Below, one piece after another: positions 6,739 to 36,259 of a DNA stretch of 64,000 nt. A model generated the notes under the pieces. It was not told the DNA's origin. It made no database searches and saw only the letters and a list, made by a program, of their open reading frames with translations. This DNA comes from a virus (lineage: Duplodnaviria > Caudoviricetes). Position 1 is the first letter of the stretch; the number at the start of each line of letters is the position of its first letter. Where the stretch lies: the IMG/VR virus record IMGVR_UViG_3300042997_000909, positions 32,001-96,000 of that record; one strand, written 5' to 3'. Both the position numbers and the translations under genes were made by a program.

Positions 6739-7521
6739 TTAATCAATATAAACTTTATCCCAGTTTGTCACAATCTTGCCATCTGCGTCTGGTTCAGAGA
6801 TGACAATTTCTTGATTTCTCAAGTGCTCAGGGCGTGCGCCACAAGCGATTTCGTCAGTTGTCAAAAAGCTAAGAACGTTCTTTTTACCTTTTCTGTAAAT
6901 GTATCCAATAGCATCTGAGTTGGATGTAGTGATACGCTTTAACTTACCTGTCAAATCAAGATCAAGTGAGTTAAACTCTGCACCATTCTTCTCTAGTAGA
7001 GTATCTTTGATGTGACCAACAAAAATAACATGAGGTGCTAAGGTTTTGACATAATTAAGAACTTTCTCAAAAGCTTGACGTAACCAAGGGTATCCCGCAC
7101 CATTTGGCATATTCAAGATATTGCCATACTGTGCTTTGTGTTTGGTAAACCATTCTTTACCCATAAGAGTTTTTGAATACAATTCTTCTGCATAAGGAAC
7201 ACATAATGTTTCCAACGCAGTAATAGTATCCAACGCAATGTACTTATAAGGTTTACCTGCATCAGTTATCATGTTACCAATAGTAACAATATCTGCTATA
7301 GATTTTGCTTTAAGTTTCATTGCCTCAACATAATCAGTACCATCTTCCAAGTCAATGATAAGACAGTTGTCAAGTTGTGACAACAAAGTTGTTTTACCAA
7401 CTTTAGGTTTACTAAAGATTACAAGATTCTTTGGACTCTTTACTTCAGCTTTTGTTCTATTCATTGGAAGAACAAAACCTGCTGGCTTTGCTTCTGGATG
7501 TTGTTCTTTACTTGTTGACAT
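6739..7521 (-). CDS. AAA_24 / Sak4-like ATPase (recombinase)
   Basis: Walker A SKPKVGKTT, IDLEDG, ALDTIT, VGH, DAIGY. Confidence 0.8.
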   Translation of the reverse strand: MSTSKEQHPEAKPAGFVLPMNRTKAEVKSPKNLVIFSKPKVGKTTLLSQLDNCLIIDLEDGTDYVEAMKLKAKSIADIVTIGNMITDAGKPYKYIALDTITALETLCVPYAEELYSKTLMGKEWFTKHKAQYGNILNMPNGAGYPWLRQAFEKVLNYVKTLAPHVIFVGHIKDTLLEKNGAEFNSLDLDLTGKLKRITTSNSDAIGYIYRKGKKNVLSFLTTDEIACGARPEHLRNQEIVISEPDADGKIVTNWDKVYID

Positions 7522-8143
7522 ACGCTTTGCTTTGTTTGATTAACTCATTTAACCACGTCTTGTTAGACAATGGAATATTGTGCTTGATACAGTAATAGTC
7601 ACGCATAGTCATTGCGCTGTAGTGGGTATCTTCTTTCTCAGAATACATTCCACCAGGAAATAAATCTTCTTCAGTCTCCATCATTACTGCTGGAGCTGGA
7701 ACTTTTACTACCTCTGCATAAGCAGCAGTTACAGATGTACTGTTAACAAGCTCCAAGTCAGTCAACCTAATCGCATAAGTTGTAGACGTTTTACCATCGC
7801 TAGATGTTTCTACTCCTACATACTTTTTAGGATTAAGTGCCCAGTTTGGATTGTTAACCAATCTGTACAATTTTCTAGTACTACGGTCATAGTGCTCTTT
7901 ATCCCAGTCAAACAACTCCACATAGAAGTCTTGACCACAAGATAATTCACTTGTCCAAAAACGTACACATTCTACTCTTTCATCTCCAAACTCTTTTCCC
8001 ATGTAGCAGAGCTTAGCACCAAACTTTGGACTGGAGATGCCCATGTTGGTGAATAAGGTTTGCCAGAAAGGTGCATACTCTGCAGTAATTTCCTTAATGT
8101 GCTTTTCCTTTTTTGGCTCTGATACAGCTTTAAAACTACTCAT
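7508..8143 (-). CDS. Hypothetical protein
   Basis: 211 aa ORF with C-terminal MTMRDYY motif. Confidence 0.7.
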   Translation of the reverse strand: MSSFKAVSEPKKEKHIKEITAEYAPFWQTLFTNMGISSPKFGAKLCYMGKEFGDERVECVRFWTSELSCGQDFYVELFDWDKEHYDRSTRKLYRLVNNPNWALNPKKYVGVETSSDGKTSTTYAIRLTDLELVNSTSVTAAYAEVVKVPAPAVMMETEEDLFPGGMYSEKEDTHYSAMTMRDYYCIKHNIPLSNKTWLNELIKQSKAYVNK

Positions 8144-31657: not shown

Positions 31658-31867
31658 TTACTTCAAGCTCGCCTTGTACTTAGCCTTAGCAATCTTCAGC
31701 TCTAACTTCTCGCTTGGAGTTTTAGCAAATACACTTTTATCAATAGTCACTCTGTGCTTATTGATTTGTATACTTAACTCCTCACGCAAGTTGTTAGCAG
31801 CGTTAGATGCATCAGACTTTGGTACAAGTTTCACATTAACTCTTGTGGCAAAGTGTAACTTCTGCAT
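31658..31867 (-). CDS. Small basic protein
   Basis: MQKLHF...; TACCTTTG box at 31902-31909. Confidence 0.6.
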   Translation of the reverse strand: MQKLHFATRVNVKLVPKSDASNAANNLREELSIQINKHRVTIDKSVFAKTPSEKLELKIAKAKYKASLK

Positions 31868-31962
31868 TTGTTTGTATATAAAAACGTTAATAAATTTCTG
31901 ACAAAGGTAAAAAAAGGAGGAATGCATTACACACTCCTCCTCGTTGCTTTAACTTCCCACGG

Positions 31963-32391
31963 TTATTGCATTGTATCTTCAGTAGACTCATGAGCGATTC
32001 TTATACAAGAAACCTCTTGAGCAAGAGCTAGTCTGTCTTCTGACAGACCATTCTTCAGTTCTTCAAGCGTTACGTTGATCCATGTCTCTTCAATCCATTC
32101 CTGACCATCATATTCTCCAACAGAATACTCACAACCATCAGGAATATGAACTAATACAAGTTCTGCATGATTTCCAGAGACAAACTCACTGCCTTTCTCT
32201 TCAAACAAGTCAATAAGAATTGGATCTTCTCTGTTTAAATCAATGTAGTGCTTTTCACCATCCATTTCTACAACAAGATTATAACTGTCATCAATAACAG
32301 TAAAAACTTTGTTGCTTCTTTTAAGCCATTCAAGACCTGCTTGAACAGAAGTTCCATAACCACCATAACATTTGTTCACTAATACTTTCAT
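31963..32391 (-). CDS. Hypothetical phage protein (NKCYGG..EYDGQE type)
   Basis: Recognisable recurring phage motif pattern. Confidence 0.75.
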   Translation of the reverse strand: MKVLVNKCYGGYGTSVQAGLEWLKRSNKVFTVIDDSYNLVVEMDGEKHYIDLNREDPILIDLFEEKGSEFVSGNHAELVLVHIPDGCEYSVGEYDGQEWIEETWINVTLEELKNGLSEDRLALAQEVSCIRIAHESTEDTMQ

Positions 32392-32419
32392 ATTCTTTAA
32401 ATTTACATTGTTTAAACAT

Positions 32420-33540
32420 CAAAAAACTAATGATATGTTCAATGCCATACTACTATACTTCATATGGCATTAGGAAATCACTCCTATAGGGTTCGCACGA
32501 CTGGCGTATACCCTACAAACTTCATGCAGTGCACCTGTATTACTACAACGCTTTGAGCCTAAGCAACTATTTATACTCGCTCAAACGAGTTTGAAAGGCT
32601 GAGTGTTGACCTTTCATATCGTGATTCTGACAACTTTCGTCATCTTACACACACTTGCGGTTAAGCAAGTACACGACATACTCAACAGAATAGGTTTCTG
32701 TCTGACCACTACGTACTGGCTCATAGGTTCCTTTTCCTACCAACTTCCCTGCAAAGGATTTACAAGATGCCTCCTGTTAGTTAGATAGTAATCATTTCCC
32801 TTGTCATCTGTCTTGCGAACGTCAAACATCTGCATATTACAGCAGAATAAGAGTATTATCACCAATACGTGCTTGGACACTTTTGCTTTTCTCTTTAAGT
32901 TATAAAGTTTTAAGCGGTCCAGGAATTGTGAAAGAAGTGGCCCAAGCGCACAGCATCATGCTACCTTTTGAGTAGTTTAGATACGACTTCTTTCTGTTTT
33001 CACCTGCCAAGGATACTCACTGTTCATTGTAATTGCCCACGGTATTTCTACCAACAGACTACAAAAAACTAACAAACGCTTCAGAGTTGGCGACTCCTAC
33101 TACAATTTGCTTACTACACTCTTCTATTGAGATTTCTCTCTCAAACTCCTGCCTGTCAGAAGTTCTGTAATACTGTGCATCAACCGTTAGGCCACAAGCA
33201 CACCATACTACAGGGAATATAGTACCTTTCAGAAGACAGAGATTACTCTCTGCGCAATGTGCTACCAACACATCACTTTATACCATCACTGGTTTATCCT
33301 ATGGTCACGAAGGCTGACCTGTTGTTTCAGTAACTCCACAAGGGAGCTTAACGCATACGCCATGAGTATTTCAACTCTGAGGGCAACAACAATGTATACT
33401 TATGGTCAGGTTCTCACCCTGACCGTATCCCCCATTCTGCTATGTTTCAAGACAGACCCAGGGATTCTCACTTGTCTGTTATGGTGAGCCAACGCCAGCA
33501 ACTTACTGGATAGACGCCTGGTTAAAGGAAAGACGCCAAT
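32420..33540 (-). ncRNA. Putative giant (~1.1 kb) structured non-coding RNA, GOLLD/ROOL-like class
   Basis: ORF-poor; multiple GNRA and T-loop hairpins that read correctly only on the minus strand; long-range complementarities. Confidence 0.7.
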
Positions 33541-33548
33541 ACTTTATC

Positions 33549-33917
33549 TTAATAGGTAATTTCAGGGATATACTGCTTGATATTAGCAAGTACTTCCTCA
33601 ATAGTCCTATAATCCACTTTGACATAACACTGAGAGTCAATGTCAATATCTCCTTCCCATCCTACATTCTTCACACAAGAGAAATAGAAATACTGATGCT
33701 TATCAAGTACAAAGGTATACATAGTACACCTATAATCAAGTTCGCGGAAATCTATCTTGTGCTTTTCTTTAAAAGACTCAGAAGCAAAAACATCAGGGTT
33801 AAGAGAACACAATGTACCTAATGCTATATTGTATTCATTACTACTAATAAAAGAACTACTATCTAATGTATGTTCTCTATCAAGTTCTAAGTATGCAATC
33901 ATACGTGCTCTTTCCAT
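33549..33917 (-). CDS. Hypothetical protein
   Basis: 122 aa ORF. Confidence 0.6.
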   Translation of the reverse strand: MERARMIAYLELDREHTLDSSSFISSNEYNIALGTLCSLNPDVFASESFKEKHKIDFRELDYRCTMYTFVLDKHQYFYFSCVKNVGWEGDIDIDSQCYVKVDYRTIEEVLANIKQYIPEITY

Positions 33918-34013
33918 GGGTAAAAAAGTTTTGAAGGTTTGTACTGAAGGTGTGAATAGCTATATAGTGTCACAATACTATGCGTTAATCACACAAAAAC
34001 TCAAGAGTAAAGA

Positions 34014-34052
34014 AAGGTGTAGTGAGGGATTTCTCCCTCACACTCACCTCCT
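34014..34052 (-). terminator. Intrinsic terminator
   Basis: GUGAGGGA-GAAA-UCCCUCAC extended stem followed by UUUCUUU on the minus strand. Confidence 0.65.
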
Positions 34053-34071
34053 CTAATGCAAGTGGATACTA

Positions 34072-34569
34072 TTATTCTCCACCAGGCAACATGCCTTTGC
34101 CACTGTTAAGTGTCTTAGACGCGCTAACCTCTGCCTGATTATCGTGAACCACGTTCACATCATGCATTTGATCAGCGGTATCCCACTTAACAAAGCGTAA
34201 AATACGCTCTCCACCAGCAGTCAACGCAGGACCATCAGCACCAGCACGCTTGATATAACTATCAATTGCTTCCTCATAGGCCACGTCATCACGTAGGAAC
34301 TCCTTCGCGATATCTGCAGGTACTTGAGATTCTAGGTACTCAAGTGCAACCAATTTACCTGGTACTTGCAAACCTTTACAAGAGGTCACGAATGCCTCAA
34401 GCGTAGCGGTTTTACCACGTAAAAGACAAGTGCGCTTAACTTCGCGTACCCATCCAGCGGTCATTACAATAGCACTTTGCTCTAATTGTACATAACCAAA
34501 ATCAGCGTTTGTGTCGTACGCTGTCACGATTGTGCCCTTCTTTCCAGGGACGATTCTAACATTACTCAT
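34072..34569 (-). CDS. Putative early protein, paralog of 35411-35902
   Basis: FGYVQLE..GWVRE.KRTCLLRG..KRAG.DG motifs shared with the paralog. Confidence 0.85.
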   Translation of the reverse strand: MSNVRIVPGKKGTIVTAYDTNADFGYVQLEQSAIVMTAGWVREVKRTCLLRGKTATLEAFVTSCKGLQVPGKLVALEYLESQVPADIAKEFLRDDVAYEEAIDSYIKRAGADGPALTAGGERILRFVKWDTADQMHDVNVVHDNQAEVSASKTLNSGKGMLPGGE

Positions 34570-34592: not shown

Positions 34593-34617
34593 CTGAATTC
34601 ATTGGGGGTTGTGGTGT
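34593..34617 (-). promoter_or_regulatory. 25-bp early-region motif, copy 1 (candidate phage RNAP promoter)
   Basis: CTGAATTCATTGGGGGTTGTGGTGT (+). Confidence 0.55.
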
Positions 34618-35410: not shown

Positions 35411-35902
35411 TTAGAATGGTGCGTCCTCTGATTTAGCACCCTCTGCTTTGGAAGCAGCCACCTCAGCGATGTTATCGTGAGAGATGATGATGTCTTGGGT
35501 AATACCCGCTCCATCATACTCTGTGAATCTCACGATACGCTTTCCACCTTTGGTAAGGTGAACGCCATCTTGACCTGCGCGTTTCAAGTAAGGCTCAAGA
35601 GCTTCCTCAAGACTGATGTCATCGCGCAGGTTAGACTTTGCGACATCAGCAGGAATTTCATCCTCAAGATACTCGCGCACTGCTATGCGTCCTGGAAGTG
35701 TTTTGGTAGCAGCGACCAAATCTTCTAAGCGTGCAACAGTACCTCTCATAAGGCATGTGCGCTTAGAATCACGTATCCAACCCTTCTCAAAAGAGGTTGC
35801 AACGGTTTCCAGGACAATGTATCCAAACTCTTTGTTTGTTGAATACACGTTTACTAATACTCCTTTAGCATTAGCTTTGATAGTTACAGCGTTTGTTGCC
35901 AT
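35411..35902 (-). CDS. Putative early protein, paralog of 34072-34569 (possibly SSB-like)
   Basis: Start at MATNAV; acidic-aromatic tail EDAPF. Confidence 0.85.
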   Translation of the reverse strand: MATNAVTIKANAKGVLVNVYSTNKEFGYIVLETVATSFEKGWIRDSKRTCLMRGTVARLEDLVAATKTLPGRIAVREYLEDEIPADVAKSNLRDDISLEEALEPYLKRAGQDGVHLTKGGKRIVRFTEYDGAGITQDIIISHDNIAEVAASKAEGAKSEDAPF

Positions 35903-35985
35903 AATCGTGGGAATGGTTGACCTAAGCACCAAAAGGTTCAAATATAAAATGTGTACTATAATTCTAAAGGCCATAGTACTGATGC

Positions 35986-36010
35986 CTGAATATCTTGGGA
36001 GTTGTGGTGT
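35986..36010 (-). promoter_or_regulatory. 25-bp early-region motif, copy 2
   Basis: CTGAATATCTTGGGAGTTGTGGTGT (+). Confidence 0.55.
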
Positions 36011-36234
36011 ACAACGTGCAAGGCAATGTGTGTTGGACAACAGGTTAATAGAAACACAGAGCATCATGTATGACACTCTGTGGTTCGTCCTGCGCAGGCA
36101 CGTGGCATCCCACCACGTCTTTGAAATCACTTGCAATTATCTCTGTAGTAAGCGTATGCTTCTGACAAAGACAATGCAATGATTTGTACTCCTGCAATGT
36201 AGTATGTTTTGTACATTGTATGGATTTTGTTGTC

Positions 36235-36259
36235 CTGGATGTCATGGGGGGTGTGGTGT
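36235..36259 (-). promoter_or_regulatory. 25-bp early-region motif, copy 3
   Basis: CTGGATGTCATGGGGGGTGTGGTGT (+). Confidence 0.55.

Follow-up and report, generated by a model that had tools for sequence, protein, structure and literature searches.

A divergent GOLLD RNA joined to a predicted pistol ribozyme in a distantly crAss-like phage without tRNA genes

What is encoded in a 1157-nt gap that separates two minus-strand open reading frames (ORFs) of a phage genome? The gap (32392-33548) lies in a 64,000-nt stretch of DNA, here called the window, which comprises bases 32001-96000 of the IMG/VR virus record IMGVR_UViG_3300042997_000909, a complete 123,450-bp record that has terminal repeats. 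It is bounded by ORF122 (33549-33917; 122 aa) and ORF142 (31963-32391). An initial annotation of the window had read the gap as a candidate for one giant, densely folded minus-strand noncoding RNA (ncRNA) of a crassvirus, belonging to the GOLLD class, the ROOL class, or a new one, and at 1.1 kb larger than GOLLD. The gap instead consists of four parts, and is not a single new giant RNA: a structured leader; a core that, judged by its sequence, belongs to the GOLLD family; a predicted pistol self-cleaving ribozyme; and a structured tail. GOLLD RNA, reportedly described by Weinberg et al. in 2009, is among the largest structured RNAs of bacteria or phages.

The Rfam GOLLD model (RF02032) covers only the conserved 3' domain of the RNA. 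In a permissive scan of positions 31800-34200, this model matched over its entire length (model positions 1-416 of 416; 116.9 bits; E 1.6e-31), and nothing besides GOLLD and the pistol scored better than E = 1. The characteristic features of the domain align in order to the model: the P14 hairpin with its UCAAAAG loop; the AAAGCAAAAGU block; a 10-bp long-range helix, which the model represents as a pseudoknot; the CGCAAG hairpin; and L27, the terminal hairpin. Two short blocks, 32961-32975 and 32875-32890, which the initial annotation had likened to parts of such RNAs, indeed correspond in the alignment to the P14 loop and to the AAAGCAAAAGU block. The long-range helix exists in three sequence versions (ACGUAUUGGU/GCCAGUACGU; ACGUAUUGGU/GCCAAUAUGU; and ACACAGUAAU/AUUGCUGUGU), each of which forms 10 of 10 pairs. 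The terminal 19-mer GAAAGGUCAACACUCAGCC (P27/L27) is invariant in all subclass members, and L27 itself reads GGUCAACACUCAGCC in the window subclass versus GGUGUAAUCUCAGCC in canonical GOLLD. The core (33403-32596) measures 808 nt, the usual GOLLD size; the supposed excess over GOLLD is accounted for by the leader, pistol, and tail. The relatives of the window score 83-123 bits, short of the RF02032 threshold of 150. Because that threshold is missed yet the architectural features are present, the RNA is, by these sequence features, classed as a divergent, sub-threshold GOLLD subclass.

The 5' half of GOLLD is the more variable one. Two motifs were derived from the aligned 5' halves of 13 canonical GOLLDs in viral contigs, and both are found in the window: AUAAAC-hairpin-UAAAGUG and UUGAG-hairpin(GAAA)-AAUAG. 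They are spaced by 153 nt, versus 160-172 nt in the canonical members. The former motif occurs only once in the 64-kb window, both strands included; the latter recurs at one further place, within the GOLLD 3' domain. A nhmmer profile of the variant 5' domain revealed no linear similarity to canonical 5' halves, as expected for a variable domain, so homology here is argued from the two structured motifs. (The 5' domains of two canonical GOLLDs considered below, L127 and L221, start with GAUAAGUAYA.)

The RNA is common to thirteen related loci, with about nine distinct sequences among them. A first GOLLD pattern scan yielded mostly chance matches, with only about 20 of 111 loci being real. Searching with the 19-mer GAAAGGUCAACACUCAGCC located four further viral contigs beyond L044, along with eight true metagenome contigs; L240, also from the metagenome scan, was excluded as a chance match to the 19-mer. 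The 19-mer is absent from 185,579 prokaryotic species genomes, and therefore provides no lead to a host or prophage. RNA identity to the window is 94-98% in L044, L233, L237, L239, L241, L243, and L244, and likewise in L232, whose contig holds the 3' domain only; it is 89% in L238 and 75% in L235. The L234 RNA is too diverged for BLAST, yet still scores 83 bits with the Rfam GOLLD model. Where the RNA is 94-98% identical, adjoining proteins are less so (ORF122, 54-61%; ORF165, 84-85%; compared in L044, L233, L237, L241, and L244). For L044, the RNA block is 97.6% identical and the surrounding genes 70-80%.

Structure was predicted by RNAalifold from an 11-sequence alignment (A3). Compensatory changes are present in 62 of 209 predicted pairs, against 13 +/- 3 (maximum 24) in 300 column permutations, and sliding the partner by 1-3 columns leaves 9-20 such pairs. 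The 5' domain holds 30 of them (permutation mean 6, maximum 12) and the 3' domain 32 (mean 7, maximum 13). Helices are kept in L235 even at 75% RNA identity. Folding energies point the same way: z = -2.69 for sense-strand 33548-32995 (none of 100 dinucleotide shuffles equally stable) and z = -2.55 for the sense-strand GOLLD core (none of 20), versus z = -1.61 for the antisense strand. The ncRNA of the initial annotation is thus upheld, both by covariation among homologues and by folding relative to shuffles. Moreover, G+C content in the gap is 0.40-0.46, versus 0.31-0.36 in the flanks and 0.354 genome-wide.

Just beyond the GOLLD 3' end lies the predicted pistol ribozyme, the sole match when the whole window is scanned at Rfam gathering scores. 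The RF02679 match spans model positions 1-68 of 68, its 56.5 bits comparing with a gathering score of 34.5; the pistols of relatives score 52-55 bits. The elements present include P1; P3 (UGUA-GUAA-UACA); a 7-bp pseudoknot (UUUGAGC/GCUCAAA) linking the P1 loop with the P2-P3 junction; the AUAAAUA and GCGU blocks; and the conserved G40-C41-G42 (G40 being 32551). Position 32 is G in the window and A in L044; an A32G pistol mutant cleaves about equally well (reviewed in PMC6154101). The G-U scissile dinucleotide is at 32534/32533; with G53-U54 of env25 as a guide (PMC6154101), the ribozyme is predicted to cut between G32534 and U32533.

The pistol follows GOLLD in the window, L044, L233, L232, L241, L243, and L244: every member of the 94-98% group whose contig extends far enough. 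In L233 a different gene lies downstream, yet both pistol and tail stay behind GOLLD; the ribozyme thus appears linked to GOLLD, not to a particular gene. The distance between the two Rfam matches varies: 5 nt in the window; 166 in L232; 204 in L244; and 279 in L044, L233, L241, and L243. The extra sequence, 166-279 nt long, forms a stem-closed RNA module, which the window lacks and for which Rfam has no matching family. Its closing helix covaries (CAGUUGUA/UACAACUG versus CAGUUUAUA/UAUAAACUG in L235). The module also has a hairpin, CCUGA-UUCCCAAGG-UCAGG (CUCAC...GUGAG in L235). This optional module is a candidate for cargo tethered to GOLLD.

The leader and tail are structured as well. The same series of leader hairpins is found in the window and in L235, where the leader is 75% identical, with compensatory changes (GGCGUCU/AGGCGUC to GGCACUC/GAGUGUC; GGUCAGG/CCUGACC to GGUUACG/CGUAACC). 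Another leader hairpin, CCAG-UAAGUUG-CUGG, corresponds to CCGG-UAAGUUC-CCGG in L234. By alignment, L044-type relatives have a different leader sequence in the same place. The leader matches no Rfam family at E <= 10, its folding alone is weak (z = -1.43), and ARAGORN recognized no tRNA-like element in the leaders of relatives. The tail (z = -2.53) is 92-95% identical in L044, L233, and L232. Its hairpins are UAGGGU...ACCCUA; UAGGA-GUGAUU-UCCUA; and a 9-bp stem (32471-32441) in which a U-A pair is replaced by C-G in L231, L232, and L233. The tail does not fit the terminator consensus that was used in our terminator scan.

Every hairpin listed in the initial annotation exists on the minus strand, distributed among the four parts. 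GGUCAGG-GUGAGAA-CCUGACC (33404-33424) is the last hairpin of the leader; those at 33237-33252, 33129-33140, and 33041-33052 belong to the GOLLD 5' domain, and that at 32631-32642 to the 3' domain; the 9-bp stem at 32441-32471, with its compensatory change, is a tail hairpin. The hairpin at 32536-32547 is likewise real, but it is pistol P3 and not one more GNRA hairpin of a giant RNA. Two proposed long-range pairings did not survive comparison. Segments 33372-33380 and 33081-33089 are perfect 9-bp complements in the window, but the covarying changes seen in relatives tie the 3' partner to a local hairpin (GGAGU/ACUCU, GGGGU/ACCUU, GAUCU/AGAUC). The pairing of 33492-33498 with 32501-32507, thought to join the two ends, would connect a leader hairpin with sequence past the predicted cut, and L044-type relatives have another leader.

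How do other GOLLD loci compare? Among viral contigs, 31 scanned loci gave 184-332 bits; the 184-bit match is cut by the contig end, and uncut matches reach at least 212. (Canonical viral GOLLDs overall, including L127 and L221, span 198-332 bits when uncut.) The 31 loci sit among tRNAs and tmRNAs, and no known self-cleaving ribozyme was found at any of them. Of 58 canonical loci (L030, L043, L068, L249, L254, and L260 among them), 16 have a tRNA on the same strand that begins 7-17 nt past the GOLLD 3' end, the very slot that the pistol occupies in the window. The distance is often exactly 17 nt, and looks like a fixed junction. At another canonical locus, L053, a group I intron match (90 bits; 7231-7637) overlaps the end of a tmRNA match (7035-7258) on the same strand.

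The converse comparison began from pistols. A survey of 124 pistol matches in viral contigs added two contigs with a pistol adjoining GOLLD: L127 and L221. In both, the ribozyme (69 and 68 bits, respectively) has an ORF stop on one side and the first nucleotides of the GOLLD 5' domain on the other (GOLLD matches above threshold, at 198 and 212 bits), so that the predicted cut would leave GOLLD with a 5' end that is nearly clean. No tRNA is present at either locus, nor anywhere in the complete 92-kb L221 genome. The initial annotation saw no tRNA in the window, correctly; ARAGORN detected no tRNA or tmRNA gene anywhere in the 123,450-bp genome (G000). Indeed, tRNA genes are present in none of the three near-complete genomes with a pistol beside GOLLD (G000, G001, and G002). 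G004 (125 kb), a pistol-less genome whose GOLLD is of the same subclass as that of the window, contains three tRNA matches plus a tmRNA.

These comparisons suggest a model, to which we assign a probability of roughly 0.75, in which the gap is a minus-strand transcription unit composed of leader, two-domain GOLLD, pistol, and tail, with the pistol trimming GOLLD. The single noncoding unit would probably be made together with the neighboring genes. GOLLD RNAs from env-38 and Streptococcus agalactiae form closed, RNA-only multimers, 12-mer or 14-mer cages, as visualized by cryo-EM (PMC12286853, PMC12990946). By extension, the GOLLD part of the window transcript may fold alone and join copies of itself into such a cage, with 3' domains forming the ring and 5' domains the caps, as in canonical members. 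The pistol, acting as its class does, would cut the nascent transcript at G32534/U32533, separating GOLLD from the message downstream. As the 5' product, GOLLD would still carry 57 nt of ribozyme and end in a 2',3'-cyclic phosphate; the RNA beyond the cut would have a 5'-OH and U32533 as its first nucleotide.

Presumably, then, the ribozyme would do the job performed elsewhere by an abutting tRNA and its cleavage by RNase P. A role in end formation is proposed because of the L127 and L221 pistols, the tRNA slot in 16 of 58 loci, and the tRNA-less genomes that have pistols. Together, and in small numbers, these suggest that the pistol replaces tRNA-plus-RNase P punctuation in phages without tRNA genes. 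A broader proposal is tentative, and we would not yet bet on it: pistols are dedicated GOLLD punctuation in tRNA-less phages; the module slot docks tethered RNA cargo; and GOLLD loci are processed multi-RNA operons. If so, pistols would take over, protein-free, the end-forming role of tRNAs and RNase P; cargo in the slot would stay covalently tethered to a cage subunit; and the ends of the GOLLD locus would matter for cage assembly.

Several observations weigh against the trimming model. The GOLLD score of 116.9 bits lies below the gathering score of 150 and is about half that of canonical members, and the model alignment shows shortening or mismatches in several peripheral helices; consequently, cage formation and subunit number cannot be assumed. 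Pistol P2 forms only three of four pairs, owing to one U.C mismatch. (That position is G-C in L232, where P2 forms four of four.) L235 and L234 carry the same GOLLD subclass without a pistol, so the ribozyme is dispensable. The association of pistols with absence of tRNAs is drawn from three genomes. The covariation comes from few independent lineages, mainly L235 and L234, and was counted on the same alignment from which the structure was predicted. Our searches found no element that defines the 5' end of the RNA. Finally, the pistol cuts near its own 3' end, so that the clean product is the downstream RNA, not GOLLD; a role in the downstream message fits at least as well.

This last point leads to the alternative that the pistol serves the downstream mRNA (ORF142 and following genes), providing it with a 5'-OH end and protective hairpins and uncoupling it from the stable upstream RNA, with GOLLD a mere neighbor. 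Cleavage 5 nt before the ribozyme's own 3' end, as in env25 (G53-U54; PMC6154101), would leave the 3' product nearly ribozyme-free while GOLLD keeps 57 nt; past the cut, the tail shows both conservation and structure (z = -2.53, one compensatory pair); and the gene after the RNA is an ORF142 homologue in the window, L044, L232, L243, and L235. Yet L233 retains pistol and tail behind GOLLD with another gene after the tail, L235 retains the ORF142 homologue without a pistol, and in L127 and L221, where the pistol is upstream, the clean 3' product is GOLLD itself. As an exclusive explanation we therefore regard it as rather unlikely; the GOLLD-processing and downstream-message roles are compatible with each other. 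Less probable still is that the RNA is nearly identical among the phages because a GOLLD-pistol(-ORF142) cassette, possibly a passenger of little use, was recently exchanged horizontally, and not because of purifying selection. The block 33410-31987 is indeed sharply bounded, 94-98% identical to L044 between sides of 70-80%; it includes the protein-coding ORF142 (93.7% identity); and the leader and the GOLLD-pistol module are swapped among relatives. The distant members L238 (89%), L235 (75%), and L234, however, keep helices by compensatory changes together with an unchanged terminal 19-mer, the mark of selection on structure. Exchange does not exclude selection.

The remaining alternatives concern the identity of the RNA. 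A GOLLD score under the Rfam gathering threshold, and a 5' domain for which nhmmer finds no linear similarity to canonical 5' halves, might indicate a new giant RNA class, or a ROOL-type RNA, resembling GOLLD in a few short blocks. A match over all 416 model positions at E 1.6e-31, with helices in order including the long-range one, and both 5'-domain motifs at the right spacing make this highly improbable; hence, among the classes offered by the initial annotation, GOLLD stands, and both ROOL (no match at E <= 10) and a new class fall away. It is scarcely credible that the gap is a pseudogene region in decay or an array of small coding ORFs. Both strands have mechanical ORFs of 30-76 aa, but stops and a frameshift break up the longest one on the sense strand (70 aa; 33271-33059) in the homologues L235 and L234, and the members of the RNA group share no ORF. 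Furthermore, substitutions in helices are compensatory, and two covariance models match. The initial impression of a gap devoid of credible ORFs was therefore correct.

The coordinates of the four parts, and of related elements elsewhere, are collected below.

Table 1. Parts of the window RNA locus and related elements on other contigs (positions refer to the window unless a contig is named).
Feature	Position	Strand	Basis or remark
Structured 5' leader, five hairpins	33404-33548	-	Directly after stop codon of 122-aa ORF
GOLLD 5' domain (variable cap domain)	32995-33403	-	Two canonical motifs and covariation; starts AUAAGUAUACA
GOLLD 3' domain (conserved ring domain, P14-P27 in published numbering)	32596-32994	-	Rfam RF02032
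Spacer UUCAA, 5 nt, GOLLD to ribozyme	32591-32595	-	Read from sequence
Pistol self-cleaving ribozyme (predicted)	32529-32590	-	Rfam RF02679, 56.5 bits
Tail, three hairpins, then U6 run before ORF142 start at 32391	32405-32528	-	Conservation and folding
Module between GOLLD and pistol	L044: 4326-4604; L232: 437-602; L244: 3371-3574	-	Sequence comparison
Stem-closed RNA module, pistol-less relative	L235: 6000-6173	-	Sequence comparison
Pistol; GOLLD match	L127: 837-912; 94-475	-	Rfam
Pistol; GOLLD match	L221: 2550-2616; 1867-2241	-	Rfam

The genome is that of a phage, as matches of the terminase, portal, and major head protein to phage families show. The terminase is nearest to Crassvirales, but at only 25-27% identity, so the phage is called distantly crAss-like. 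GOLLD was not found in the four deposited phages closest by terminase, and blastn of the region against 50,697 deposited phage genomes returned no match. Four flanking ORFs were searched: none matched Pfam, and only ORF142 matched PHROGs, in a family of unknown function.

Scans for sigma-70 promoters and intrinsic terminators near the RNA found nothing above shuffles. Canonical loci have a consensus about 400-450 nt upstream of the 3' domain, consisting of TTTG, a spacer of about 20 nt, and TAnnTTTG, which we take to resemble the Bacteroidota promoter consensus; a convincing TAnnTTTG box of this type was not seen upstream of the window's GOLLD. A different 25-nt minus-strand motif, ACACCACAACCCCCAAUGAAUUCAG, has just three copies in the window (34593-34617, 35986-36010, and 36235-36259; six or fewer mismatches between copies), each lying upstream of minus-strand genes. 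The one closest to GOLLD is two genes upstream, so GOLLD may be co-transcribed from it. Also upstream, the minus-strand 165-aa (34072-34569) and 241-aa (35411-36136) proteins appear to be paralogous: each query matches both loci in relatives at 45-54% identity. Neither matches a Pfam or PHROG family.

What is new here is the combination: a sub-threshold GOLLD subclass joined to a pistol, in a complete 123-kb genome of a tRNA-less, distantly crAss-like phage, both parts being from known families. GOLLD cages, domain organization, and tRNA association are published (PMC12286853, PMC12990946, PMC5737381), as are the association of pistol with phages (Harris et al. 2015, PMC4604425) and with phage genes and other ribozymes (PMC4604425, PMC6154101). 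Full-text literature searches retrieved no paper linking GOLLD with pistol or any self-cleaving ribozyme, and none on GOLLD in crAss-like phages. The claim is modest, since the parts are familiar and the reading is one of sequence. Nevertheless, it extends the GOLLD family to a divergent subclass missed by the Rfam threshold, in a tRNA-less phage lineage. Moreover, a ribozyme in place of an abutting tRNA argues that precise formation of GOLLD ends is itself selected. The predicted transcript boundaries (32534/32533 here; just before the 5' domain in L127 and L221) can be used to design constructs.

How, then, does the window RNA compare with known systems? Like other GOLLDs, it is of phage origin and has a core of about 800 nt made up of two domains of about 400 nt each, the 5' one variable and the 3' one conserved; env-38 GOLLD, for example, is 833 nt, with residues 421-833 forming the conserved 3' domain (PMC12286853). 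It shares the P14 loop, AAAGCAAAAGU block, long-range helix, CGCAAG and L27 hairpins, and both 5' motifs. It differs in its score (117 bits versus 198-332 for canonical members), its several shortened helices, its L27 sequence, its extra leader of about 135 nt, and the self-cleaving ribozyme motif at its 3' end. Its genome also lacks tRNAs, whereas the family has been described near tRNA islands, which is a tendency and not a requirement. The ribozyme has the full pistol motif (P1, P2, P3, pseudoknot, AUAAAUA and GCGU blocks, and G-U dinucleotide) and the phage association of its class. It is distinguished by the P2 mismatch and by its position directly behind a giant structured RNA, or in front of one in L127 and L221. 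ROOL is likewise a large, ornate phage RNA that forms cages, but has no match at E <= 10 in 31800-34200.

A functional parallel may be the tRNA-punctuated GOLLDs. The env-38 RNA lies downstream of tRNA-Met (PMC12286853), and tRNAs abutting or embedded in GOLLD were described by Morgado et al. (2020), as cited in PMC12990946. In both arrangements a self-contained processing signal would lie on the same strand 5-17 nt from the GOLLD 3' end. There, the tRNA is cut by host RNase P or RNase Z; in the window, the ribozyme would act independently of protein, and is predicted to stay on GOLLD and leave a cyclic-phosphate end.

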